Shown piece after piece: positions 2 through 22,872 of a stretch of 22,874 bases of DNA. The stretch is from a virus (lineage: Duplodnaviria > Heunggongvirae > Uroviricota > Caudoviricetes): the IMG/VR virus record IMGVR_UViG_3300029305_007758, one strand, 5' to 3'. The translations under genes were made by a program, and so were the position numbers. Below the pieces are notes generated by a model. The model saw only the letters and a list, made by a program, of their open reading frames with translations. It was not told where the DNA came from and did not search any database. Position 1 is the first letter of the stretch; each line of letters starts with the position of its first letter.

Positions 2-2428
2 TTTTGTGATATCACGCATGAATTTGGTCATTACGTTTAAGTTTTTGAGTCCTAAAAAGTCGAACTTCAAAAATCCTAACTGACCTTCTGCCTGAATCAT
101 ATCTGCCTGAATTGCAAGTTTTTCCTCTTCATTGGTGCAAATCAGCGGAATATAATCTTCCACACGACCATTTTGAATGGCGATAATGCCTGCTGCATGC
201 TGTCCATATGAAGTAATGTATCCTTCAATCATCTTTGCGTATTCAAAAATACTCATTGCAACTTTATCTTTACTGAATTTTTCAACAATAATGTCTTCAA
301 TTTCAATAAGATGTGAACATTCACGCGCATAACCACGTAAGGATGCACCTGTTGATGCATATGTTCTCGTATCTTCTCCTCTCTCCATCGCATAAAGCTT
401 TGGCGCATATGTTAATGCATTAAGAGGGCCCATGATAGACTTTGTCATGATACCGGCAATTGCCTGTTCACCATATGTTTCTGTGACGTAGTTAATGGCA
501 AACTCACGAGCGAAGCCACTAAAATCAGAATCCACATCAGGCATGGATACTCTTTCTGGGTTTAAGAAACGTTCAAATAATAGATCCAAGTCAATCGGAT
601 CAAGTTCTGTAATACCTGCAAGATAGCAAACTAATGAACCTGCTGCCGATCCACGACCCGGACCAATGTCCATTGCGTTTTCTCTTGCAGCTTTACATTT
701 ACCAAGTACGTCAGCAATGAATAAATGGTACGAAGCAAATCCCATGTTACGAATTGTTTCTAATTCATAATCAAGACGCTTCTGTAACTTATTGTTCCAT
801 TTACTACCGTATCGCATTTCGATACCTGCTTCCGGACATGCAATTTCAATTACTTTGCCATCCATTGTTTCAACAGTTACAAAACCATTAATTGTAAGTT
901 CTCTTAACTTTGCATCAGCATCCTTAAATTCTGGATAATGCTGATTCGGCTTTACCATTTCTTCAGTGATACCTTTTTTCGGATTAGCCTTTGTTTCAGG
1001 CAATCTTGCGTTACATTTCGCAACTATTTCAGCAATGTTTGAAATTGCTTCAACAACCATGTCATCTGGTAGAATCTGAGACAACATTTCTGCTTTCTCA
1101 ATATTTGTTTTGAAATATAACTCGGAATCACTATCAATTGGTCCAGACCACTGTCCTGTTTTGATTCTGGTACAGTTTTTAAGAAGCATTCTTTTCTTTA
1201 AGTCTTCCGGACGTGCCATGTGGTTATCATTTGTTGCAACAAGTTTGATACCATTTGCACGTGCAAGTTTCGCAATCACCGGATAAAGTTCTGCTTCTAA
1301 CGCATCACCATGATACTGAACCTCTGCATAAAAATTACCTGTTCCAAAAATACTTTCATACAACTTAATTGTTTCAGTTGTTTCCATAAGTATTCTTGCT
1401 TCAGATTTTTTCGCTGCATTTAAAGCAGTAATCTTATCAAGATTTGATTCGATTGTCTGTGCTTTTGGTTTGTGTTTTGTTAAAAGCTTTTTATCTTCAG
1501 AAATTGTTGCTTTAAACTCCTGAATCTGTTTCTTTAACTCTGCAACACGTTCTTTTGCATCTTTTGTTTCTGCCATTTCAAGTGCTAATTTTTCTTCCAG
1601 ATAGGTACGAATTGCTTCATCTGGTTCAGCTTTGATATTGGCTTTTGTTTCCTTAAATTTCTTGCCAGCCTTTTCTGCTAATGCTTCAATTTCGGCATTT
1701 AATTCATCGATGCGAGCGTTTACTTTTGCAACCTTTTCTCTTGCCGCAAAATATTCTGCTGGCAATAAACTTTTACTTTTTTCGATACGTTTCTCGATTT
1801 TTTCGATTTCGTGATCGATTTTGTTGTTAAAAGCAAGTGGTGTTGCAAGTACACCACCGATACAAGCACTCATTGCAACAACATTGCCCGAATCCACTGC
1901 ATCTGGTCCAAAACATTCGTATAACAATCGTTCTGTACCAATTGGTCTACCCTTATCGTCTATGTTTCTGTTTGTTGCAGATACATAGCGAGCAATCTGT
2001 TTCATACCTTTGTAATTTTTTGCAATAAGTACTAAATGCTGCGGAATCTCTTTACCCTTAAATACTTCTGCAACAAGTGCATCTGTTTCAGGGTTATCAG
2101 ATTCCATGTCATAGTAACCCATTGTTGTTACATAAGCTTCTACGCCAAGAATTGGTTTGATAGGTGCCTGTTCTTTTGGTAACTTCTTGTGGTCTGATGT
2201 TTCATCACCGTTACAATAGTTGTAAAAATCGAGCCAGTTTACACAGTTACCATGGTCTGTGACAGCACATGCTACTGCACCTTTCTCGATTGCTACATTA
2301 ACTAATTCTGTTACTGACTGTGCACCGTCACCGATACCTATATTTGCATATGCATCTGTGTGACAATGAAGTTCAGTATTCGTTTCGATTGGTAATGATT
2401 CAATCGTTTTTCTTAAGTCTTCTGTCAT
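2..2428 (-). CDS. dnaE: DNA polymerase III alpha subunit (DnaE-type), 3' end runs off the window (~809 aa visible); missing from the ORF track
   Basis: Hand translation from ATG 2428 (RBS AGGAGG at 2435-2440): PHP motifs LHCHT, TDHG, GVEAY, QHLVL, SAC, TNDNH; palm motifs GPGRGSAAGSLVCY, FERFLNPERVSMPDVDSDF, HAAG, KFDFLGL; frame open to the window edge. Confidence 0.97.
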   Translation of the reverse strand, partial: MTEDLRKTIESLPIETNTELHCHTDAYANIGIGDGAQSVTELVNVAIEKGAVACAVTDHGNCVNWLDFYNYCNGDETSDHKKLPKEQAPIKPILGVEAYVTTMGYYDMESDNPETDALVAEVFKGKEIPQHLVLIAKNYKGMKQIARYVSATNRNIDDKGRPIGTERLLYECFGPDAVDSGNVVAMSACIGGVLATPLAFNNKIDHEIEKIEKRIEKSKSLLPAEYFAAREKVAKVNARIDELNAEIEALAEKAGKKFKETKANIKAEPDEAIRTYLEEKLALEMAETKDAKERVAELKKQIQEFKATISEDKKLLTKHKPKAQTIESNLDKITALNAAKKSEARILMETTETIKLYESIFGTGNFYAEVQYHGDALEAELYPVIAKLARANGIKLVATNDNHMARPEDLKKRMLLKNCTRIKTGQWSGPIDSDSELYFKTNIEKAEMLSQILPDDMVVEAISNIAEIVAKCNARLPETKANPKKGITEEMVKPNQHYPEFKDADAKLRELTINGFVTVETMDGKVIEIACPEAGIEMRYGSKWNNKLQKRLDYELETIRNMGFASYHLFIADVLGKCKAARENAMDIGPGRGSAAGSLVCYLAGITELDPIDLDLLFERFLNPERVSMPDVDSDFSGFAREFAINYVTETYGEQAIAGIMTKSIMGPLNALTYAPKLYAMERGEDTRTYASTGASLRGYARECSHLIEIEDIIVEKFSKDKVAMSIFEYAKMIEGYITSYGQHAAGIIAIQNGRVEDYIPLICTNEEEKLAIQADMIQAEGQLGFLKFDFLGLKNLNVMTKFMRDITK

Positions 2429-2537: not shown

Positions 2538-3959
2538 TTACAATAATTCTTTTGCTGCAATTTTCGCAAATGCCTCAATATATACGGTACGTTCTTCTTT
2601 TGAAAGTTTTGACACTTTTGAAGCATCAATGCCGGTTTCTTCTTCTGCACCGGAATATGCCATATCAAATACTTCCAAAAAACGTTCAAATGATACAGAT
2701 TTTGTCTCATTTCTGTATCCGGCAAAAATCATATCATCAATCCCTTTTCCATAAATTTCTGGCCAAATAGCAAATGCCACAGTAATATCCGGTCGAAACT
2801 CTGTCACATAAGATGCTAATGCAATTCCTGCTTTGTATACCTGAATATTGTGAATTAAATCTGCGTCATAAAAAACATGTAATGTTTTCAATTTACGACC
2901 AATTTTACGTTCTACATCCATCAGCATTTCAATAATTCCTGCATAGTTATTCACACCTTGTACAGAAAGTGCAATTAACCCTTGTTTTGCAAGAATTTCA
3001 GCTTTAAAACGGCCTTCTGTAATACATATATTGGTACGTTCTGTAATTTTATCAGGAAACACTACATCAATCGGTGTACCACAAGAACCACCACCACGGA
3101 CATATTTTGTAGGAATAAACTCTTTTGAAAAGTACTTGTAACGAAGACCATTTTCATCCTTTTTATCCATACGTACTTGAACTGCAACAATATTGTCATC
3201 CACATCACGAAGTAACATGCCAATTCCGGAATACTGTAATGCAGAATCATCCCAGAATCCATTACTCATAAGCATTTCAAAGAATCCTGGAACGGTATGT
3301 AATTTATCCGCATATTCCGGAAACTGTTTTTTGATTTTAAGAATCAGTGCAACAGTAGCTTTTGGATCAGAAGTTCGCATGGTAAAATAATCTTTTTTAA
3401 TCCGATTATCTGCTAACTGACGTTCGTCTCGTAACTGTCTTTCATGTTCCGGAATTAATTTCCATTCTTTAGCCATGTAAGAATAAATATCTGTCCACAT
3501 TTTAAGTGTTTCCGGCGTTTGTTTTGTTACAGGTAATAACATGGTACGAACATTTGAATTATTTGTTTTTTTGCAAACATATTCAATTTCAGACAGCTCA
3601 TTATATGTATCTTCGTCAATGAGTTCTTCATCCATTGCTACCTGTAATACTGCTTCCTGCCATTCCATATCAAATAAATGCATTGCAGAATTGATAATAT
3701 CGCCACCAGCATTGCAAGCGTAACACCAACAAGAATTCTTTTTTGCATCTACAGAAAAACTGCCAACGTGATTATCCATATGAAATGGACACAATGAGAC
3801 ATAACGACTTCCGCCGCTACGATGAAATCTTGTGCCATAATGTGACAATACATCTACAATGTTTAAATTTTTCACTGCTGCGATAATCATACTCATTTTG
3901 CGAATTGGATCCGTAATTTCTGATTCAAATCCACCAAATGACTCGATAAATGAAATCAT
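2538..3959 (-). CDS. DNA primase-like protein: CHC2 zinc finger plus TOPRIM domain (DUF3854-like); start moved from 4019 to 3959
   Basis: CPFH...SFSV...CYACNAGGD zinc finger; TEGRFKA and YDAD TOPRIM acidic motifs; AGGAGG RBS just upstream of ATG 3959. Confidence 0.88.
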   Translation of the reverse strand: MISFIESFGGFESEITDPIRKMSMIIAAVKNLNIVDVLSHYGTRFHRSGGSRYVSLCPFHMDNHVGSFSVDAKKNSCWCYACNAGGDIINSAMHLFDMEWQEAVLQVAMDEELIDEDTYNELSEIEYVCKKTNNSNVRTMLLPVTKQTPETLKMWTDIYSYMAKEWKLIPEHERQLRDERQLADNRIKKDYFTMRTSDPKATVALILKIKKQFPEYADKLHTVPGFFEMLMSNGFWDDSALQYSGIGMLLRDVDDNIVAVQVRMDKKDENGLRYKYFSKEFIPTKYVRGGGSCGTPIDVVFPDKITERTNICITEGRFKAEILAKQGLIALSVQGVNNYAGIIEMLMDVERKIGRKLKTLHVFYDADLIHNIQVYKAGIALASYVTEFRPDITVAFAIWPEIYGKGIDDMIFAGYRNETKSVSFERFLEVFDMAYSGAEEETGIDASKVSKLSKEERTVYIEAFAKIAAKELL

Positions 3960-3996
3960 ATTTAACCTCCTTGTTTCTTTTTTTTTGTTTACGTTA

Positions 3997-4006
3997 TAAA
4001 TATGGT
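3997..4006 (-). promoter_or_regulatory. Class I motif ACCATATTTA upstream of the primase
   Basis: Exact 10-mer 38 nt before ATG 3959. Confidence 0.6.
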
Positions 4007-4021
4007 TTCTGCTGTTCATAT

Positions 4022-4072: not shown

Positions 4073-7000
4073 TTATTCACAATGACCATAAATCCATGTA
4101 TCAAGATTTACATTAGCATTATCACAAACTCTGCTCCAGTTAGTTGTTGAGCCGTTCCAACAATGTGTTGTGTATGGATGGCCATTACATGAAACTCCAA
4201 TAACAAGCGTTCCTGTAGAATCCATTAATGTTTGATAATTATTACATGAACCTGTTGCGGCTGGTGTAATGTCATAGTGCCAATCCCAATGAGTATGCCC
4301 ATTACATGTTGCTGAAATAAATATACCAGATCGACCATTGTATGTTACTTTATTAGTATTATACCAATTCCATTTACTTGCTGATAATGCATCACCATTT
4401 GCAATAGAAATATTGGCATTTTCTAACAATGTTGTAACTCTATCTGTTGTTGTGTCAAATCCATTTGCTGCTAATAATTCAAGAATTTCATTCAGTTCAT
4501 CTTTTGCGTCATTCACATTTTTAATCTTTTGATTTAATGAATAATATTCACTCTTTGATGAAACGTTTGTATATGTACTAACAGCGTAATCAAGTACATT
4601 TATTTTTGATTCAAGGTTATCAATAGCTTTCTTTCTTTTAACAGCCCATTCATCCCAAGTTGATAAATCACTATTTGCACTATAAACCTCACTCATTTTT
4701 GAGCGTGTGTTATTGTTTAAATAATCATAAGCTGCATATTGAGATACTTGACTGCTAAATGTTTTTTGGAACAATACACTTGGCCAACGACCAACGAATG
4801 TATAATACAAATCTTTGTAAGCATCTAAATATGAATCATATTTTTCGTATACATAATCTTTTGCAACAACATCACCGGTTACACTATCATATGTATATTT
4901 TGTTTCTACGGCTCCATTTTCATTTGTTGTGTATTTTTCAAAAACATTATAATATAACAATGATTCTTCTGTGCCGCGATTCTTACTTACTACATAAGCA
5001 TGTGTATAAGCAGTTGATGGTAAAATACCATACTGATCATAGTAACTTAATGTTACATCTAACATTTCTTTCTTAAATGTTTTGCTATGAGCGTCTGTTG
5101 CAATATAAACATTACCATCAAATAACTCTTCTTCATAAAAACCAGAATAGTCAACAGTAATTGTGTTTCCAAAGATATCTTCGTATTCAGTGTATCCTGT
5201 TTCCCATTGTGTACCACGTAGCAAATAAATAAATGCTTTAATATTTGTATCGGTCCACCCACTGAATACACCAGATTGTCCATAAACAGAGTCAATCACA
5301 TATCCGTTTGGACGAACTGTGCCAACAATGTTGTTTGCATCTAAGTTGTCTAAATCATATTTACGAATAGAACCTGTTGAATTATCATAATCTGAACCAG
5401 ACAGGTTCAAATTTCTTGAATAAGCAACAAACTTATTATCACCAATACAAAGCATAGGCACTAATTCTGTTTCAATTATTTTATATCCCACACTACCCAC
5501 TTCATAATCTTTTGGTTCAAAATCTGGTACAACTAAATTACTTTGAACATTTGTTGAATCCGGAACATAAAATGCAATATCTCCCACTTTAAAAGTAAAT
5601 ATAGATGGGGCTTCTTCGTTATACATATGTGCAAGTTCTGAATATACACTTGGTGTTTTTACCCCATGTTTTGCTAATACATAACGGATAAAATCATAAG
5701 ATGAAATCTTATCATAAGACGAAATTTCATTTTCATCCAAAGTATGATTTTTTACATTTGATGTTGTGTCAAAATGTCCTGTTGTAAAGAATGATGTTTC
5801 TGCCATTTCAGCATTAACTGTGACATTAATTGCTGTTTCAAAACCATCTTCGTTCTTTGTTTCTTCATTGAAAATGACATCCGCTGTGTTTGAAAACAGT
5901 AAAATGATATTATTACTATCATAAAATGGTTTGAATGGATCAAACTCATCTACAATTGCATCAATTTCTACAGCACCTTCTACATCAAGATTTGTAGATG
6001 TTGAGCCAGGAATATTTGGTCGCCACACTACTGTATTTAAAGCATTGTAACTATGATTACCTGCTACGGTTGGTACAGCACTACGTAAACTATTTGTTGA
6101 ACCATTTGAATAAACATAATGTTTTCCATTTGCATTGTAAGCAAAAATTTCTGTATGTCCGGACCAACCATAATTTCCTTCGTCATCATATTTATAAGAA
6201 CCATACGTAATGATATCGCCTTCTTGCAACACATTCCATCCGTTCCAACTATATTTTGTAAAACCGGATATACTTGGCGCATTTAATAAGCTTTGTGAAT
6301 TAAAGTTTGTACCAGACGCTGCTGCACCATTTAACCATAGACAAGCAGATACAAATCCGGAACAATCTGTTCTTACCTGATAAACGGTACCATTTACATT
6401 AATTGGAAGATATGTTGTTTGATTATATGTTGCCTGTGTTTGCGCAATAAGTGTTTTAATAGTTCTTACAACATTCATCCAGTCACTATTTACAACTGTA
6501 CCTTTTGGGCAATTTGTTGCATCAATATTTACTTGCCCACCAGAACTACCTGTTGTAACTCCTGCCATTGCTTCATATGCTAACATCTCATCATACTGAA
6601 TATCTACATAAATGTGACATGCATGGCCAACTGATCCGTCCGCATAATAAAAATCATACGGCTCTGTTGTTACAATATGTGTTTGGTCATATAGTTTATC
6701 AACCCAACTTTGTAATTCTGCGTCTGTTACAGTATCAAAGTCAAAATCGCACATAACTTCCACTGCACAAAAGATTTCTTTGTAATTTTCTAACGAACCG
6801 CTCGGATATTGTGTGTCAGTTGTATCATATTGTTTACGAATCTCTGCAATTTCATCCAACATATCATTGTGACTCGTATTTAGTGTTACCATAATTTTCT
6901 CGCCACGATCTTGCAGTTGCGATGACCATTCAGATTCGATGTCCTCACTTATAAATGATTGATTAGCTTGATTTTCATTGATAACATTTCCTAAGAAAAA

Positions 7001-8533
7001 GTTACTTGCTTTATAATTATAATTATACAATGTTTGAATGAAAAGGTCTAAAACTGTAATTATAAGACTTGCTAGTAAAAGAAATACAACCGCAAACATA
7101 AGAATTTTTGCTACTGTTGCGAAAATTTTTGCAACACCTTCTGCAAATTTTTGAAATACCGTTTGCATAGTTTTAATTGCTGTTTTTTCTGCAAATTTTC
7201 CCGTAACTTTTTTTACAGAAGATCCCAATTTTGTTCCAATAAGTTTGTTTTTCAGTTTACCTGTAACCTTTTTTCGTAGCACAGTGTTAATTTCATTTTT
7301 TGTCAACACATGGTCTTTGAGCAATTGACCCCGAAGTTCTAAAATGTCTAATGCGCCTTTTGCAATAGAACTGTTTTTATGAGAATCTATAAATTTCGTC
7401 AAACTTTTAATTGCAAATTTATTTGTATCTTCCGATAATTTTCGTCGCAACAATCTTGATGCAGAATCTTTTCCCCATGGACGAACTTTTGTAGTTCCCC
7501 ATGTCTTTGAAAATGCTTCTGTAGCTTGGTTAAACGCTAAATCCGTTTTTACTCCAGATTTTATAAGTACAGTTGCTTCTTTTTGGATTTTAAAAGTTTT
7601 ATACATTTTAAATCCTGCGGCACTTGAGATATTTCCAGTAAATCGACCGATTGCCATGGCACCGCCCATACCAGCTTCAAGAATGTTCATACCTTGCATA
7701 ACATCAGCACCTTGAAGTGGTGAAGATGCAAGACGAAACATTTGGCGACCCCAAGTTTTTGGATTTGAAAACTTTGCTGATTTGCCTGCTGTGTTTTTAA
7801 GGCGTTCTGTAATCTCTGTACCCTTTTGAAGAAGTGGCAATTCTTTTTTCGCATCAGAAAGCGCTTGTAATTTCAAATCATATATATCTTTTGTTATAAT
7901 GCCATTTTCAAAAGCAACACGAGCTTGATCAAATTCTACTGTTAATAATTCGACTTGCTTTTGTTGCTCTTTTAAACAAGTTGCATAAATTCGATTTAAT
8001 TCGCCAGCATCAACTTTTAAATCAATAAACGAAAATGAATCATTCGCATTTTTTGTAATTATAACACCCTTTTTTTGAAAACTTTCCGGAAGATTTTCAC
8101 AATTCGTTATTTTTACCGTCGTAGACAGACCACCATCTGTATTAAATGTTATATTTGGATTTTTACTTTCTTCTAAAATAACATTTTGCTTATTAAAATA
8201 TTCCTGTAACGCTCTTGGTGTTTGAAGGTGTTCTGTATTTTTAACTAATTCTTTGTATTGTTGTAAATTATAAGCACTTGCACCAGAGTAAATTGCAGAT
8301 CCTACTCCTGTTCCAACTGGTGTCGCAACCCTTGTGGTAGTGCTAATAACTTTCCCAGTTTCTCTATCAGTTGTTTCATTTACACTCTGACGTTCTGCTT
8401 GACGGCTAATTGATGATGATGTTTGTTCTACCATACCTTTTGCAGTAGATACTGTATCAAAACGTTTAAAGTTTCGAAGCATATCCATTCCACAACCCGA
8501 CACACTCATCATTGATTGATTTATTTTTGCCAT
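4073..8533 (-). CDS. Large membrane-anchored cell-wall hydrolase (1486 aa): NlpC/P60-like domain plus degenerate lytic domains; VirB1-like conjugative hydrolase or phage tail lysin
   Basis: Basic N-terminal region; hydrophobic helix ILMFAVVFLLLASLIITVLDLFI; RTDCSGFVSACL...LQEGDII...GHTEIF Cys/His motifs; RBS GAAAGGAG. Confidence 0.72.
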   Translation of the reverse strand: MAKINQSMMSVSGCGMDMLRNFKRFDTVSTAKGMVEQTSSSISRQAERQSVNETTDRETGKVISTTTRVATPVGTGVGSAIYSGASAYNLQQYKELVKNTEHLQTPRALQEYFNKQNVILEESKNPNITFNTDGGLSTTVKITNCENLPESFQKKGVIITKNANDSFSFIDLKVDAGELNRIYATCLKEQQKQVELLTVEFDQARVAFENGIITKDIYDLKLQALSDAKKELPLLQKGTEITERLKNTAGKSAKFSNPKTWGRQMFRLASSPLQGADVMQGMNILEAGMGGAMAIGRFTGNISSAAGFKMYKTFKIQKEATVLIKSGVKTDLAFNQATEAFSKTWGTTKVRPWGKDSASRLLRRKLSEDTNKFAIKSLTKFIDSHKNSSIAKGALDILELRGQLLKDHVLTKNEINTVLRKKVTGKLKNKLIGTKLGSSVKKVTGKFAEKTAIKTMQTVFQKFAEGVAKIFATVAKILMFAVVFLLLASLIITVLDLFIQTLYNYNYKASNFFLGNVINENQANQSFISEDIESEWSSQLQDRGEKIMVTLNTSHNDMLDEIAEIRKQYDTTDTQYPSGSLENYKEIFCAVEVMCDFDFDTVTDAELQSWVDKLYDQTHIVTTEPYDFYYADGSVGHACHIYVDIQYDEMLAYEAMAGVTTGSSGGQVNIDATNCPKGTVVNSDWMNVVRTIKTLIAQTQATYNQTTYLPINVNGTVYQVRTDCSGFVSACLWLNGAAASGTNFNSQSLLNAPSISGFTKYSWNGWNVLQEGDIITYGSYKYDDEGNYGWSGHTEIFAYNANGKHYVYSNGSTNSLRSAVPTVAGNHSYNALNTVVWRPNIPGSTSTNLDVEGAVEIDAIVDEFDPFKPFYDSNNIILLFSNTADVIFNEETKNEDGFETAINVTVNAEMAETSFFTTGHFDTTSNVKNHTLDENEISSYDKISSYDFIRYVLAKHGVKTPSVYSELAHMYNEEAPSIFTFKVGDIAFYVPDSTNVQSNLVVPDFEPKDYEVGSVGYKIIETELVPMLCIGDNKFVAYSRNLNLSGSDYDNSTGSIRKYDLDNLDANNIVGTVRPNGYVIDSVYGQSGVFSGWTDTNIKAFIYLLRGTQWETGYTEYEDIFGNTITVDYSGFYEEELFDGNVYIATDAHSKTFKKEMLDVTLSYYDQYGILPSTAYTHAYVVSKNRGTEESLLYYNVFEKYTTNENGAVETKYTYDSVTGDVVAKDYVYEKYDSYLDAYKDLYYTFVGRWPSVLFQKTFSSQVSQYAAYDYLNNNTRSKMSEVYSANSDLSTWDEWAVKRKKAIDNLESKINVLDYAVSTYTNVSSKSEYYSLNQKIKNVNDAKDELNEILELLAANGFDTTTDRVTTLLENANISIANGDALSASKWNWYNTNKVTYNGRSGIFISATCNGHTHWDWHYDITPAATGSCNNYQTLMDSTGTLVIGVSCNGHPYTTHCWNGSTTNWSRVCDNANVNLDTWIYGHCE

Positions 8534-10493: not shown

Positions 10494-12707
10494 TTATGCC
10501 ACAAGTCGTTCCATCAATCGTGTATTACGTTTTGCGTCATCTGTATTATTGATACAATCTATCAAAGCGTCGTCGACATAAACAATTGTTACCATTTCTC
10601 TTGCACGTGTAACTGCCGTATACAATAATGAACGATGCATCATATTTTTTGCTGCTTCTGGTAAGAAAATAATAATAATTGGATTTTCAGAACCTTGTGA
10701 CTTATGAATTGTAAATGAGTATGCATGTATCATGTCATGAATTGCTGCATGTGGTAATACCTTTGATTCGTTGCTAAAACCATCACTGACTACGATTTCG
10801 TTGTTATCAATGTAATCAATGATACAAATTTCTCCATTTACATACAACGGCTCTGCTTCGTCCTCATCTTCAGCTGTAATATATTGATTTCTTAAAAACA
10901 TTACCTTATCTCCCGGCTGAATATCACTTGAAGCATTTTCATCTTTGTGTACAAGTGTTTTATGTACAAATTCATTTACCGCATACGTGCCTACACTGCC
11001 TTTCTTTGATGGTTGAATAACCTGAGTTTTAAACGGATCATCGTTATCATAATATTTTGTTATCAAATTCTTTAATGTTTCAAATCCATTTTCATCATCT
11101 TCACATTTGATAACATGAAAATCTTTATCATTTGCAATTGGCATCTGGCCATCTAAGATAAGGTTTGCATTGTCAACAATTGTACCTTCATCCTTTTGTC
11201 TAAAATTTTCAGTCAATCTGTAAACAGGAAACATATTTGATGCAATAATATCATGTAAACAATTTCCTGCGCCAACAGATGGTAACTGAAACTCATCTCC
11301 TACAAACAAAATTCGTGTTGTATCTTTGAGCGCAAATAATAACATTTCAAGCTTCATTGCATCTACCATTGACATTTCATCAACAATAAGAAAATCAATA
11401 TCTAATGGATTTGCAGCATTATATGTTAGAAGATTTCCTGTTTCAAAAGGCTTTGAGCCAACCAATTTATCAATTGTATAAGCCTTATATTCACCATCAA
11501 GTGATTCTGACAAACGTTTTGCTGCACGACCGGTTGGTGCAACGAATTTTACATTTGCATGCGGATAATATTTCTTGTAATATTCAACAATACCTTTAAT
11601 TGTTGACGTTTTACCGGTGCCTGGCCCGCCCGTCAACACTACAACTCCACCATCCTCTAACATGTAAAATGAATGTCTCTGATCTTTTCCGTAACGAACT
11701 CGAAATCTTTTTTCAATATCAACAATTTCTTCTATTTTAACTGCAATATTGATTTTTGCAGTTTGTGAAATTACTTTTAATCGATTTGCAATGTTAATTT
11801 CAGCATTGTATAGCTTCTTCAATGCAATCATTCCTGTATTAATGTCTAAATAAACTCTTGGATTATTTATAATTGCGTCAGAAATACAAATGGCAGGAAT
11901 TACAGTTGCATAGACAGATCTTACAGAAAACTTATTCAATTCTTTTGCCAATTCATCTGCAAAAGCATAAGTATGTCCATCACTTCCTTGCTTTTCTAAA
12001 TAAAACTCAACAAGACCATTGATGCGATCTTTATTTAATGCAGGAAGATTAATCGCATATGCAACGGCATCAGCAAGTCTCATGCTAATACCAAACTGTA
12101 AAAAAACTCTGTATGGATTTTGTTTGATAAATTTAACTGCATCCTGTTTATATGCATCATAAATATCAAGAATCATTTTGTAATCAATATTATATGGTGA
12201 TAAAAACTGTTCCAATTCTGTTAATGCAGTTTCTGTATCAAAAATTGCTAATACAAATTTATTGATAGAATTTAAATTCCATGTTGGAAAGTCTTTTGAT
12301 AATGATTGTTGCATTGTAAAATGGTCCATACAAACAATATCTTTTCCATACAGTTCTACCATTTGTTCAATTTTTCTTTGTCCAATACCTGTGTTTTTTG
12401 ATTTTGTTAACGATGAATAATAATCAATTGTTGTTTTCTCATTCATCCAAACAAAATTACACTGTGTACAGTTAAAACCATCTTCATCCCAAACACCTTC
12501 TACTTCAACCGGCATGTTAACAACCAGACCGGTTCTAAAAGAACGACAGCAAACAGTATTATCTGCTTCACGTTTGACATTTTTAGCTGGGGTATCAATA
12601 TAAAAATACGTTTTCCCATTTGTATCAACTTTTGTGGAGATTGATTTTACAATGCCACGATATTTAATTAAACAATCAGCATTAATTGAATTTGTTACAA
12701 TATCCAT
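10494..12707 (-). CDS. recD2: RecD2-like SF1B 5'-3' DNA helicase (start moved from 12749 to 12707)
   Basis: GGPGTGKT, APTGRAAKRL, IVDEMSMVD, VGDEFQLPSVGAG, RLTENFRQ, TIHKSQGSE, YTAVTRAR; RBS AGAGGTG before ATG 12707. Confidence 0.92.
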   Translation of the reverse strand: MDIVTNSINADCLIKYRGIVKSISTKVDTNGKTYFYIDTPAKNVKREADNTVCCRSFRTGLVVNMPVEVEGVWDEDGFNCTQCNFVWMNEKTTIDYYSSLTKSKNTGIGQRKIEQMVELYGKDIVCMDHFTMQQSLSKDFPTWNLNSINKFVLAIFDTETALTELEQFLSPYNIDYKMILDIYDAYKQDAVKFIKQNPYRVFLQFGISMRLADAVAYAINLPALNKDRINGLVEFYLEKQGSDGHTYAFADELAKELNKFSVRSVYATVIPAICISDAIINNPRVYLDINTGMIALKKLYNAEINIANRLKVISQTAKINIAVKIEEIVDIEKRFRVRYGKDQRHSFYMLEDGGVVVLTGGPGTGKTSTIKGIVEYYKKYYPHANVKFVAPTGRAAKRLSESLDGEYKAYTIDKLVGSKPFETGNLLTYNAANPLDIDFLIVDEMSMVDAMKLEMLLFALKDTTRILFVGDEFQLPSVGAGNCLHDIIASNMFPVYRLTENFRQKDEGTIVDNANLILDGQMPIANDKDFHVIKCEDDENGFETLKNLITKYYDNDDPFKTQVIQPSKKGSVGTYAVNEFVHKTLVHKDENASSDIQPGDKVMFLRNQYITAEDEDEAEPLYVNGEICIIDYIDNNEIVVSDGFSNESKVLPHAAIHDMIHAYSFTIHKSQGSENPIIIIFLPEAAKNMMHRSLLYTAVTRAREMVTIVYVDDALIDCINNTDDAKRNTRLMERLVA

Positions 12708-12741
12708 CCTGTCACCTCTTTTATACCTGTTACATAATATT

Positions 12742-12763
12742 AGGGTCAAAAATGCCTAAAACG
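12742..12763 (-). promoter_or_regulatory. Class II bipartite motif CGTTT-N11-GACCCT upstream of recD2
   Basis: Fixed 11-nt spacer; 35 nt before ATG 12707. Confidence 0.55.
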
Positions 12764-13781: not shown

Positions 13782-14450
13782 CTATTTACGTTTTCGTCTT
13801 AATCCGGCACGTTGTTTTTCTGTTATATATTTTGATAATGCATAATCTTGTCGTTCTTTATATTTACATCCAATGGTAATCCTGTTGTCATTTGAATCTT
13901 TAATACGAACGACAATCAGTTTCATAGTAAAATTTGCTCCACATTCTTCATCTTTGAAGAACAATGTAACTTCATCATTTACCTTTATATTTATATTTTT
14001 TGCTGCAGATAATCCAATTCCATTCAAACTAATATCACGAAGCATTACATAGTCAGTTGTATTGTCTGGTAAATAAATAACTCCAGATACGCAAATTTGC
14101 TGTCTAAAACTACGTCTCAATCCTTTATTTGATATATTTTGATTACAAATAAAAACATGAAATGGATTTTTCCCGATTTTTATCATTTGAATAGAAATAT
14201 TGTCTGTCCAAATGTAAGATGTATTATTTTTTGTGCCAATAAAATGAATATCACAATCAGATATGTCAACCTTTGTTAGTTGAACAATTGGTTTTGTTAC
14301 AATAAAATTATCTCCAAATGTTTCTTTTAACTTTTCTACATGTTTCTGATTTAATGATACAACAGTTGTTTGTAAATCATAGTATTTCTGGTCTTTTCGT
14401 ACCAAACGAATTGTAACGGGTGTTTCCGGCACTATTTCATTAATATACAT
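13782..14450 (-). CDS. PilZ-domain c-di-GMP-binding protein (YcgR-like two-domain layout)
   Basis: RRSFR (RxxxR) and DISLNG (DxSxxG) motifs in the C-terminal half; ~110-aa N-terminal domain; RBS GAAAGGA. Confidence 0.85.
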   Translation of the reverse strand: MYINEIVPETPVTIRLVRKDQKYYDLQTTVVSLNQKHVEKLKETFGDNFIVTKPIVQLTKVDISDCDIHFIGTKNNTSYIWTDNISIQMIKIGKNPFHVFICNQNISNKGLRRSFRQQICVSGVIYLPDNTTDYVMLRDISLNGIGLSAAKNINIKVNDEVTLFFKDEECGANFTMKLIVVRIKDSNDNRITIGCKYKERQDYALSKYITEKQRAGLRRKRK

Positions 14451-16420: not shown

Positions 16421-17437
16421 TTATGCTGCAATTTTAATACGTAACACATCTTTACGGCCACACATTGCTTTTAAAAAACCAATTGCATTTACAAATGAAC
16501 TTTCTTCCGGAATGATGATGTCTTCGCCAAATACTTCTTTTACTTCATTTTCAATCATGTTGATTGTTCCACCAATGAATACAAACTGTGTGTAATCAAC
16601 CGGCCACTGTGCCGCACGACAATCATTCATAATGTCTGTAACATAAGTGTTAATATATTTATCAACGATATTTTTTGAATCTTTTTCAATCTGTAAATTT
16701 GGTCTCGTTGGTTTCAAACAACGGTTATCACCGACACGTTTTAATAATTCCATTACATTCTTTTCATTGACACGAGAAAATGCTGCAGATAATTTCTGTG
16801 CCAATCCTGAAATCAACGCTTTTGCACCTTTATCTGTTGTAACAGATGTAAGTGAGTCAATTTCACCTGCATCAAACATTGTCATGTTTACATTTAAGAA
16901 ACCAATATCTACAACACCAACGGTACCGGTTGGGTCTACACCATTTGCAAAAATCGCACCATATGTTTCCGGATATACATATCTGCCAACAATTTTGAAT
17001 TTCTTTGTTACAGGTTCAGATTCACCTGTTAATTTGTATCTCATTTCAATTTCGTCTTCCGGCAAAATAAATTCACGATATTTGTTACGAATCGCTACTT
17101 CCTGATAATCTTTTACCGGAATGCCGATTGCTACATAAACTTCATCGACTTCATCTTCTGAACATTCTCTTGCAATCGCAAATAATGTACTAAGTTTATG
17201 AACAAATGTCTTCTTTGAAGAAATTAATTCTGTACCAATTGTTGCTGCATGGCCAACCTTATACGTATGGCCTTTCATTTCAACAAGATATGTATCTTTC
17301 CCCGGGTCTGTATCTTCAAATGTACCTTCTTCATATTTTGTTTCAAAACTTGCTGTTTTGACGGTTTCTGTTGCAGCATCGTATACTGCTACTTTTGTGT
17401 GTCCTTTACCTGAATCAACTGCAATGTATCTTTTCAT
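16421..17437 (-). CDS. ParM/StbA/Alp-family actin-like segregation ATPase
   Basis: IAVDSGKGHTK (phosphate 1), YVYPETYGA, VGVVDIGFLNVN (phosphate 2), FVFIGGT (adenosine); 338 aa; RBS AAGGAG. Confidence 0.88.
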   Translation of the reverse strand: MKRYIAVDSGKGHTKVAVYDAATETVKTASFETKYEEGTFEDTDPGKDTYLVEMKGHTYKVGHAATIGTELISSKKTFVHKLSTLFAIARECSEDEVDEVYVAIGIPVKDYQEVAIRNKYREFILPEDEIEMRYKLTGESEPVTKKFKIVGRYVYPETYGAIFANGVDPTGTVGVVDIGFLNVNMTMFDAGEIDSLTSVTTDKGAKALISGLAQKLSAAFSRVNEKNVMELLKRVGDNRCLKPTRPNLQIEKDSKNIVDKYINTYVTDIMNDCRAAQWPVDYTQFVFIGGTINMIENEVKEVFGEDIIIPEESSFVNAIGFLKAMCGRKDVLRIKIAA

Positions 17438-21516: not shown

Positions 21517-22872
21517 TTAAACACCTGCAAGTGTTCTATAATCATCTTCACTGATGATAGCAACGCCAAGTTCCTTTGCCTTCTTGTTCTTACCACTTGT
21601 TGACTCGGTATCATTGTTAATCAAATAATCTGTATTCTTTGATACAGAACCGGATACTTTACCACCAAGTGATTCGATTTCAGCTTTTAATGCATCACGG
21701 TTTGCATAATGATTTACACTACCTGTGATAACAAATGTTTTACCTGCAACACCTGAATCAGAATTATATTCTTTTACATAATCTTCTTTTGTATCAATAA
21801 AAGTTAATTCACCAAGAACTCGCATCTCTGGTGTTGTTTCATTCATACATGCTGGTGCAAGGAATTTATCTTCAATAAATGAAACAAGGTTTGCTGCTAA
21901 AACATCACCGAATCCATTAATTGATGTAAAATCAAATCCTGATTCAACCATCTTTACTAATGAATGGAACAAACTCTTACCTTTGCTATGAGATTCTTCC
22001 CAAGCAATGATTTCTGGTGCAAGCATTTTTGCCTGGCCTTTACCAACCATTGGAATACTTAAGGCAGGTAAGAATTTCACAAATGTTGTCTGCTTGCTTG
22101 ATTTAATTGCATCAATCATGTTTTTGACTGATGTTTCTCCCCAACCTTCGAAACTTGATAATTCAATTACGTTTTCAGATGCATCAACTGGTGTCATTGG
22201 CGATACGAAACCAACCTGATCGTATTCATTTGTCATTAAGTATAAATCATAAATATTTTTGACAAATTCATTTCTTACCAAAAACTCAACTGTTGCTTCA
22301 GACATACCCTGGATATCCATGCATCCTCGTTCACAGAAATGTGTAATGTTACCAATCTGTTTGAAGCTGCATTCACTATTTGGACAAGTTAATAATGTCG
22401 CATTTTCAGTTTCTATAATACGCATATTGCATCCACACTCTGGACATCTTGTTGGAGCATTGTATCTTGCTAATAAATCAACAAGCGACATAGCATTTAC
22501 GTCCACAAGTTTTGCATCATAATTTACTGCTACCTGCGGAATAATCTTGTTAGCCTTAAAGACTGCAATAGTGTCACCAATCTTAATATCTTTCTCAATC
22601 ATCAGTCCCAAATTATGCATTGATGCACGTGTAACTGTAGTTCCTTCAAGTTCTACCGGATCAAATACGACAACCGGTGTAAATGCTCCAGTTCTACCAT
22701 CGGACCAAATGATGTCTCGCACAGTTGTGTCTTCTGTCTCATCTTTCCATTTTAATGCGTATCCGTTCCAAACATGTGGATGGTGACCTGTATCTGGCTG
22801 TACTTTTGCAAGTTCATAATCTTCTAAAGCAATAACCAGACCATCAACCGGATATTCATAAAGTTTTGGATC
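21517..22872 (-). CDS. ligA: NAD-dependent DNA ligase, 5' end runs off the window
   Basis: Frame is open upstream of the track's 22722 start: YPVDGLVI, TGHHP, ALKW; then GRTG..TPV, RASMHN, CPEC/CPNSEC zinc finger, HhH repeats and BRCT (FVITGS...GGKVSGSVSKNTDYLI). Confidence 0.96.
   Translation of the reverse strand, partial: DPKLYEYPVDGLVIALEDYELAKVQPDTGHHPHVWNGYALKWKDETEDTTVRDIIWSDGRTGAFTPVVVFDPVELEGTTVTRASMHNLGLMIEKDIKIGDTIAVFKANKIIPQVAVNYDAKLVDVNAMSLVDLLARYNAPTRCPECGCNMRIIETENATLLTCPNSECSFKQIGNITHFCERGCMDIQGMSEATVEFLVRNEFVKNIYDLYLMTNEYDQVGFVSPMTPVDASENVIELSSFEGWGETSVKNMIDAIKSSKQTTFVKFLPALSIPMVGKGQAKMLAPEIIAWEESHSKGKSLFHSLVKMVESGFDFTSINGFGDVLAANLVSFIEDKFLAPACMNETTPEMRVLGELTFIDTKEDYVKEYNSDSGVAGKTFVITGSVNHYANRDALKAEIESLGGKVSGSVSKNTDYLINNDTESTSGKNKKAKELGVAIISEDDYRTLAGV

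Follow-up and report, generated by a model that had tools for sequence, protein, structure and literature searches.

A predicted coiled-coil arm in the PHP domain marks a family of DnaE polymerases from large plasmid-like elements in gut and rumen Clostridia

Introduction

The stretch of DNA analyzed here, IMG/VR virus record IMGVR_UViG_3300029305_007758 (22,874 nucleotides, in the following termed the window), carries on its minus strand the beginning of a dnaE gene for a C-family DNA polymerase, and the PHP domain of this polymerase is extended in frame by a long segment that ordinary DnaE proteins do not possess. This raises the question of what the additional segment is, where it came from and what it might do for the polymerase. 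C-family polymerases are the replicases of bacteria and their architecture has been comprehensively surveyed, yet the large and deeply diverged DnaE family to which the window protein belongs appears to have gone undescribed. Two comprehensive surveys of C-family polymerases (PMC3919608, PMC12926913) do not mention a coiled-coil insertion, and we found no description of such a DnaE insertion in the searchable full-text literature, by which measure the family is new.

The family couples an arm of fixed length on the proofreading domain, by inference about 80 Å long, with the loss of the clamp-binding motif. If it is true that this arm replaces the contacts to clamp and tau, the family would represent a second route by which an enzyme of the DNA polymerase III (Pol III) alpha type achieves processive and coupled synthesis, and would help to explain how the giant plasmid-like elements of these gut bacteria are copied without relying on the replisome of the host, a member of the Clostridia. 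The question can be addressed at the bench because a cultured carrier exists, Ruminococcus albus 7, whose megaplasmid pRUMAL01 encodes the arm-bearing protein WP_013483299.1.

The PHP domain of the window DnaE contains a long in-frame insert

The open reading frame at the start of the window encodes a DnaE-type C-family polymerase, in which a PHP domain precedes the palm/NTPase domain of Pol III alpha; the 809 N-terminal codons are present (Table 1), while about 500 C-terminal codons fall past the window start. In Pfam, PHP (PF02811) matches residues 19-223 with an expectation value (E) of 3.8e-23 and DNA_pol3_alpha (PF07733) matches residues 533-793 with an E of 6.2e-63. The best Foldseek matches are the Pol III alpha structures 2hpi (E 2e-29), 4iqj, 7pu7, 2hnh and 5fkv, and Pol III alpha structures likewise come out best in sequence searches of the PDB. 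Full-length relatives (P0002-P0032) additionally possess PF17657, PF14579 and PF01336, corresponding to the fingers, the beta-binding helix-hairpin-helix (HhH)2 domain and the C-terminal oligonucleotide/oligosaccharide-binding (OB) fold, a region that for the window DnaE lies beyond the window.

Two motifs anchor the additional segment, namely SACIGG (residues 187-192) and LYESIFG (from residue 356), which enclose 163 residues in the window DnaE; ordinary DnaEs, when aligned on this pair of motifs, have 19 amino acids (aa) between them. The surplus of about 144 aa is best assigned to residues ~200-343 (window positions 1400-1831). An earlier reading of this DNA made from the sequence only had proposed an insertion of about 140 aa within PHP at 1390-1820, which is essentially right. 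The same sequence-only reading had assigned the codon of the SAC cysteine to 1863-1865 and counted a gap of 168 residues; the first value is off by one base and the second by two residues, and they are corrected here to 1862-1864 and to 166 residues between Cys189 and Leu356. That the segment far exceeds the ~25 residues considered typical is borne out by 240 ordinary DnaEs, in which it comprises 10-29 aa. A long in-frame insert after the SAC motif of the DnaE PHP domain is thus confirmed.

To describe how the segment length is distributed, we assembled 288 DnaE sequences, consisting of the closest database matches, 80 loci from species genomes, 10 family-wide loci and 80 IMG/VR loci. The distribution is bimodal, with 10-29 aa in 240 sequences, 98-199 aa in 48 and none between. 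In a phmmer search of a library of 1.84 billion protein cluster representatives, all 144 assessable representatives among the best 150 matches have the arm (105-236 aa), and 98 of these 144 fall at 160-169 aa, so that the length strongly preferred between the anchors is ~163 aa. At 50% identity there are at least 144 arm-bearing representatives; since matches continue past rank 150, which still has an E of 3e-65, the family must be larger than this number.

The insert is predicted to form an antiparallel coiled-coil hairpin

AlphaFold2 (AF2) modelled the 809 residues from a 52-sequence alignment with a mean predicted local distance difference test score (pLDDT) of 90.6 and a predicted template modelling score of 0.86, and with pLDDT values of 86-98 for the insert. 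The insert is wholly helical in this model: helices span residues 200-220 and 224-254, a turn and a short helix (259-266) follow, and the chain returns in helices 271-308, 310-318 and 320-339, the last of which leads into the native helix 343-361. When the segment was folded alone from a 58-sequence alignment, the same helices were obtained at a pLDDT of 94.8. In an alignment of 153 such segments, the hydrophobic signal is strongest at a period of 3.5 residues, and this holds for each of the two strands (200-254 and 271-339). With high confidence, the insert is therefore predicted to fold as an antiparallel two-stranded coiled-coil hairpin, which we refer to as the arm. Because each strand comprises ~55 residues, the arm would be roughly 80 Å long as judged from the helix length.

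These results agree with the sequence-only reading, which had described the insert as K/E/A-rich, heptad-like and devoid of intein motifs and had envisaged a long helical hairpin. It had also considered the possibility that the insert is disordered and unconserved among homologs; the arm is instead ordered in the models and conserved in length across a large clade.

Ordinary DnaE and PolC hold a short helix-turn-helix at the same spot, between the Cys-bearing PHP strand and the last PHP strands. The arm is hence an existing alpha-hairpin lengthened by about 70 residues per strand and no foreign domain. A search of the ESM Atlas with residues 150-420 returned generic PHP clusters only, Pfam detected no exonuclease domain within the insert, and Foldseek gave no match for the arm alone at an E of 0.001 or better. 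The only and weak look-alikes in the latter search are long antiparallel coiled coils, namely Smc arms, HP0958/CT398, YscO and p85 iSH2. An intein was rejected as the identity of the insert, as the segment, which starts with VLATPLAFNN and ends with ETIKLYES, is all alpha-helical and has neither a Cys/Ser start nor a His-Asn end. A Rad50/SMC-type arm was rejected as well, since the tip GKKFKETKANIKAEPD contains no cysteine, and thus no CxxC hook, and no hinge, and since the base is a PHP barrel.

The arm was gained once and is conserved along its length

A maximum-likelihood tree was built from 359 alignment columns that exclude the insert and end at residue 620. In this tree, the 48 arm-bearing sequences all fall into a single clade, without intruders and with a support of 1.0. 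As the grouping was obtained from columns free of the arm, the insert was gained once and then retained, and it is retained in clade sequences down to ~27% identity. The arm is hence the hallmark of one monophyletic DnaE family.

Within the clade, the identity of the arm to that of P0008 is 0.72, compared with 0.66-0.68 for the flanking PHP parts, and to those of P0002 and P0003 it is 0.40-0.47, compared with 0.38-0.52. Judged by these identities, the arm appears to evolve as fast as the catalytic parts of PHP. Near-invariant positions are Asn201 at the arm base and Ala291 in the descending strand, the latter being conserved in at least 90% of the sequences, and a break formed by a proline and an aromatic residue in the ascending strand (Pro223/Tyr226) is conserved. 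The tip has the clade consensus A-x-K-x-[FY] followed by a Lys/Arg-rich stretch, after which the descending strand begins acidic.

The PHP domain that carries the arm has an intact metal site. In a 35-sequence clade alignment (A2), the ligands H21, H23, D34, E97, H131, C189, D401 and H403 are invariant and H59 is conserved in at least 90% of the sequences; Cys189, which lies directly ahead of the arm, is also invariant in a further alignment (A1). In the DnaE proteins of Thermus aquaticus (Taq) and Mycobacterium tuberculosis, the PHP domain does the proofreading. Because all nine ligands are kept, the analogy with these two enzymes suggests that arm-bearing DnaE proofreads by its PHP domain itself.

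Arm-bearing DnaE is carried by large plasmid-like elements

The arm-bearing family sits on large (200-420 kb) plasmid-like elements of gut and rumen Clostridia. The megaplasmid pRUMAL01 of R. albus 7 has a size of 420.7 kb, and the segment of its DnaE measures 163 aa. In IMG/VR, arm-bearing dnaE genes occur on circular elements of 199-346 kb: two contigs, of 199 kb and 244 kb, have direct terminal repeats (CheckV 100%), and a third measures 346 kb (CheckV 99%). The arms in IMG/VR carriers are 98-199 aa long. Pfam models for terminase and for the HK97 capsid (one each) had no match in the IMG/VR carrier contigs.

Ordinary chromosomal DnaEs of metagenome-assembled genomes (MAGs) of Oscillospiraceae, Ruminococcus and Lachnospiraceae are without the arm. 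A search covering the family to which one Ruminococcus MAG belongs (401 genomes, two candidates scored per genome) revealed no arm-bearing DnaE among the matches listed, a further 236 matches lying outside this list; every top-ranked match of the clade profile in these genomes began past the arm, at profile position ~298. The 80 genome-collection loci likewise showed no arm among the matches listed, and as ordinary DnaE dominated this set it serves as a negative control only. The possibility that the insert is common in chromosomal DnaE of the host clade, which had been raised from the sequence alone, thus found no support in the matches listed for the 401 genomes or in the 80 loci.

The clade appears to lack the clamp-binding motif

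Most ordinary DnaEs possess an internal beta-clamp-binding motif of the QxxLF type. A QxxLF-like pattern in the linker between HhH and OB fold is present in 110 of 136 ordinary DnaEs, compared with only 8 of 103 arm-bearing ones. In ordinary DnaEs, a match to Q..[LMIV]F occurs 150-175 aa past the FNKSH motif in 104 of 186 sequences, whereas a scan of the whole protein in 151 arm-bearing DnaEs yielded no position bin with at least five such matches. The motif was scored by regular expression on homologues sharing at most 50% identity, the region in question lying beyond the window for the window DnaE itself. By this measure, the arm-bearing clade appears to be uniformly without a positionally conserved internal clamp-binding motif. 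The motif is typical of cellular DnaE and yet not required for membership in the DnaE family.

The linker that would hold the motif is altered in arm-bearing DnaEs, being longer (median 89 versus 63 aa), richer in K/E/R/Q and poorer in G/P/S. In the full-length relatives P0002-P0032 it appears as a K/E-rich replacement segment that looks helical by its composition. The C-terminal region past the OB fold is of near normal length in full-length relatives (median ~178 versus 195 aa).

We further inspected the replication genes of four complete carrier elements. Pfam models for DnaN (PF00712, PF02768), the clamp loader (PF13177) and DnaB_C (PF03796) had no match in any of the four, while the control genomes did match the DnaN, clamp-loader and DnaB_C models. 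Homologues of a RecD2-type helicase are present in all four elements, and three of them have two copies. Relatives of the epsilon-like protein of the window are present in just two of the four, and the pseudo-epsilon is hence a poor candidate for the partner of the arm. Ahead of the arm-bearing dnaE of pRUMAL01, and likewise in two IMG/VR loci, lies a gene with a CHC2 zinc finger, as in the primase encoded near dnaE in the window. Among the neighbours of dnaE in nine arm-bearing loci we counted RecD2 in four, a weak HipA_C-like family in four, LigA in three and CHC2 in three. A survey of neighbouring proteins for acidic C-terminal tails as targets of the basic tip gave nothing convincing.

Possible functions of the arm

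How might the arm act? The sequence-only reading had suggested a docking arm for a helicase, clamp or pseudo-epsilon, or else a dimerisation stalk in place of tau. We propose as the likeliest role that of a fixed-length tether for the polymerase, whose tip would hold DnaE to DNA or to a replisome partner (primase or RecD2-type helicase) and would thereby supply the contacts that clamp and tau give in cellular replisomes. Indirect evidence leans to such a tether to a partner or to DNA, as the clamp motif is lost in the clade and RecD2 is present on the elements while clamp, clamp loader and DnaB were undetected. We consider this reading, in which the enzyme would be a clamp-independent replicase, about equally likely to be right or wrong. 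A more far-reaching form of it, in which DnaE, RecD2 and primase alone would replicate replicons of 200-400 kb as a minimal clamp-less C-family replisome and the arm would act as the processivity and coupling device by closing over DNA or clasping RecD2, we regard as rather unlikely.

Several observations weigh against the tether. About 45% of the arm-less DnaEs from IMG/VR contigs are likewise without the clamp motif, so its loss is not specific to arm-bearing enzymes, and the motif may be degenerate or relocated, or the host clamp may be reached via another subunit. The absence of DnaN, DnaX and DnaB rests on one or two Pfam models each, and in the nine arm-bearing loci, examined over 10 kb, no neighbour is universally linked to dnaE. 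Arm length and the length of the altered HhH-OB linker do not co-vary (Spearman -0.02), leaving a packing of the arm against this linker unsupported. Moreover, one member of a cluster at 90% identity resides on a contig of 1.08 Mb, and a plasmid location is hence not required of every copy.

Other explanations share part of this evidence. The arm might contact DNA as a processivity device in its own right, with the basic tip and the stalk running along, or closing over, the duplex product or template such that no clamp is needed. The conserved, Lys/Arg-rich tip with its aromatic residue would suit this role, as would the missing clamp motif, the lack of a detected DnaN on the elements and an arm length conserved as tightly as expected for a device that spans a fixed distance. 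Since the net charge in the window DnaE is merely +3 for the whole arm and +2 for the tip, the descending strand starts acidic, and neither Pfam nor Foldseek recognised a DNA-binding fold or motif, we think it improbable. Antiparallel coiled-coil hairpins often pair, and on the complete elements no clamp-loader/tau domain was found; two arms could accordingly form a four-helix bundle that couples the leading and the lagging polymerase and replaces tau. Against such a dimerisation stalk, the arm exposes highly charged faces and no second hydrophobic seam, its tip has neither a hook nor a hinge motif (for example CxxC), and with a C-terminal region of near-normal length past the OB fold a tau-type contact is not obviously lost, which makes the stalk quite unlikely.

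The position of the arm directly after the metal ligand Cys189 (three residues on), together with the conservation of all nine ligands, would also be compatible with a regulator of the PHP exonuclease, in which movement of the arm gates the primer end or positions it at the active site of PHP. An arm of 80 Å far exceeds what a gate needs, however, and conservation extends to the distant tip as well as the base, so that we assign this role a very low probability. Finally, the hairpin could have expanded on the surface without function, by compositional drift in a low-GC element or as the remnant of a mobile insertion, which would be in keeping with its K/E/A-rich sequence and with the spread in arm length towards the margins of the clade (98-236 aa). 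This is hardly credible given a single origin with retention down to ~27% identity, a sharp length mode (98 of 144 representatives at 160-169 aa) and a conserved heptad register, Pro break, Ala291 and tip motif; the rate of evolution, which appears equal to that of the catalytic PHP parts, and the lack of intein, repeat or transposon features likewise speak against it.

Comparison with known polymerases and coiled coils

Ordinary DnaE1 and DnaE3 enzymes, such as those of Escherichia coli, T. aquaticus and M. tuberculosis (2hnh, 2hpi, 5lew, 7pu7), share with arm-bearing DnaE the fold, the domain order and the PDxDxDF motif, and the intact PHP metal ligands are a feature that the arm-bearing enzymes have in common with those of T. 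aquaticus and M. tuberculosis. The two groups differ in the segment after the SAC motif, with 10-29 aa in ordinary DnaE and 98-236 aa in the arm clade, and in the QxxLF-type internal clamp motif, which most ordinary DnaEs bear and the arm clade appears to lack.

A parallel in architecture is PolC, likewise a C-family polymerase of Bacillota, whose PHP barrel accommodates a large in-frame insert in one of its surface loops. PolC of genome G001 has its Exo domain between GVEAY, which holds the Glu ligand, and HQIIIAKN, which holds the His ligand, whereas only 24 residues separate the SAC motif from the YLEIQ strand; arm-bearing DnaE carries its insertion after SAC. Because the Exo domain of PolC lies between the Glu and His strands and its SAC hairpin is short, the arm sits in another loop of PHP, which lies downstream of the PolC site by one beta-alpha unit. 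The PolC insert is an enzyme domain, in contrast to the arm, a predicted coiled coil without DEDD motifs. Insertion at the same site as the PolC Exo domain was accordingly rejected, the PHP loop being a different one and Pfam finding no exonuclease domain. The loop between Glu97 and His131 of the window DnaE (window 2027-2146, residues 95-134), where PolC carries the Exo domain, comprises 33 aa and is partly helical in the model; it is presumably somewhat longer than in ordinary DnaE.

The thioredoxin-binding domain of the T7 polymerase gp5 is an element-specific insertion that confers processivity and docks replisome partners via basic patches. Situated in the thumb of an A-family polymerase, it is a flexible loop of ~76 aa without a coiled coil and serves to recruit a host protein. 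The arm could work in an analogous way, though the two have no relationship in sequence or structure. Antiparallel coiled coils of similar length occur in the Smc and Rad50 arms, HP0958/CT398, YscO and the arm of seryl-tRNA synthetase. The best of the weak Foldseek matches of the arm are 5xg2, 5nnv, 3na7, 4ilo and 4mh6, none of which reaches an E of 0.001. As the DnaE arm tip is without hinge, zinc hook or zinc ribbon, its likeness to Smc, HP0958 and YscO reflects a generic architecture and not homology.

Features of the window, split dnaE genes and neighbouring genes

The coordinates of the polymerase gene, its parts and the two candidate partner genes are compiled in Table 1.

Table 1. Polymerase gene, arm and candidate partner genes in the window
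Feature	Position	Strand	Basis or remark
dnaE, N-terminal 809 codons	2..2428	minus	Open reading frame and translation; 3' end cut by window start
PHP domain, first part, residues 19-192	1853..2374	minus	Ligands H21, H23, D34, H59, E97, H131, C189
Cys189 codon (SAC motif), PHP metal ligand just before the arm	1862..1864	minus	Read from sequence
Arm, ascending strand, residues 200-254	1667..1831	minus	AF2 helices; 3.5-residue period
Arm tip, residues 255-270, GKKFKETKANIKAEPD	1619..1666	minus	AF2; column conservation, charge profile
Arm, descending strand, residues 271-339	1412..1618	minus	AF2 helices; period signal strongest here
PHP domain, last part, residues 344-470	1019..1399	minus	Native helix 343-361, FYAEVQYHG, ligands D401/H403
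Metal ligands D401/H403	1220-1228	minus	
Polymerase palm/NTPase domain, residues 533-793	50..832	minus	PF07733; PDB sequence alignments
Catalytic PDVDSDF, residues 630-636	521-541	minus	Aligns with the same motif of the Taq and E. coli enzymes
Primase gene (CHC2 zinc finger and DUF3854) near dnaE, candidate partner	2538..4019	minus	Pfam
RecD2-type superfamily 1B (SF1B) helicase gene, candidate partner	10494..12749	minus	Pfam

Many arm-bearing dnaE genes are found in two or three pieces (L143:9923-14448; L099:9908-20761; P0010-P0012, P0033-P0035, P0288 with P0286). The break point lies inside or just ahead of the FERFLNPER / PDIDSDF motif, leaving an N-terminal piece of ~575-600 aa and a C-terminal piece of ~760-780 aa. 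One cluster at 90% identity holds both an intact (1337 aa) and a split (596 and 759 aa) form. The gap between the pieces measures ~400 nucleotides in L143, and one gap in L099 measures ~5.7 kb. A search of the L143 gap against Rfam returned only a sub-threshold match to a group I intron (14.4 bits, E 0.43).

Positions 4073-8533 of the window encode a protein of 1486 aa without a Pfam or PHROG family. In length and position it resembles a 1481-aa 'serine-rich protein' in the replication region of pRUMAL01 (L001:15570-20015), and a tblastn comparison of the two revealed no similarity at an E of 1e-5. The gene block that contains dnaE also encodes a PilZ-domain protein (13782-14450), a ParM-like actin (ALP_N; PHROG partition protein; 16421-17437) and an NAD-dependent DNA ligase (21517-22872), the 5' end of which is cut by the window. 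LigA is also encoded near the arm-bearing dnaE in two further loci, L092 and L095.

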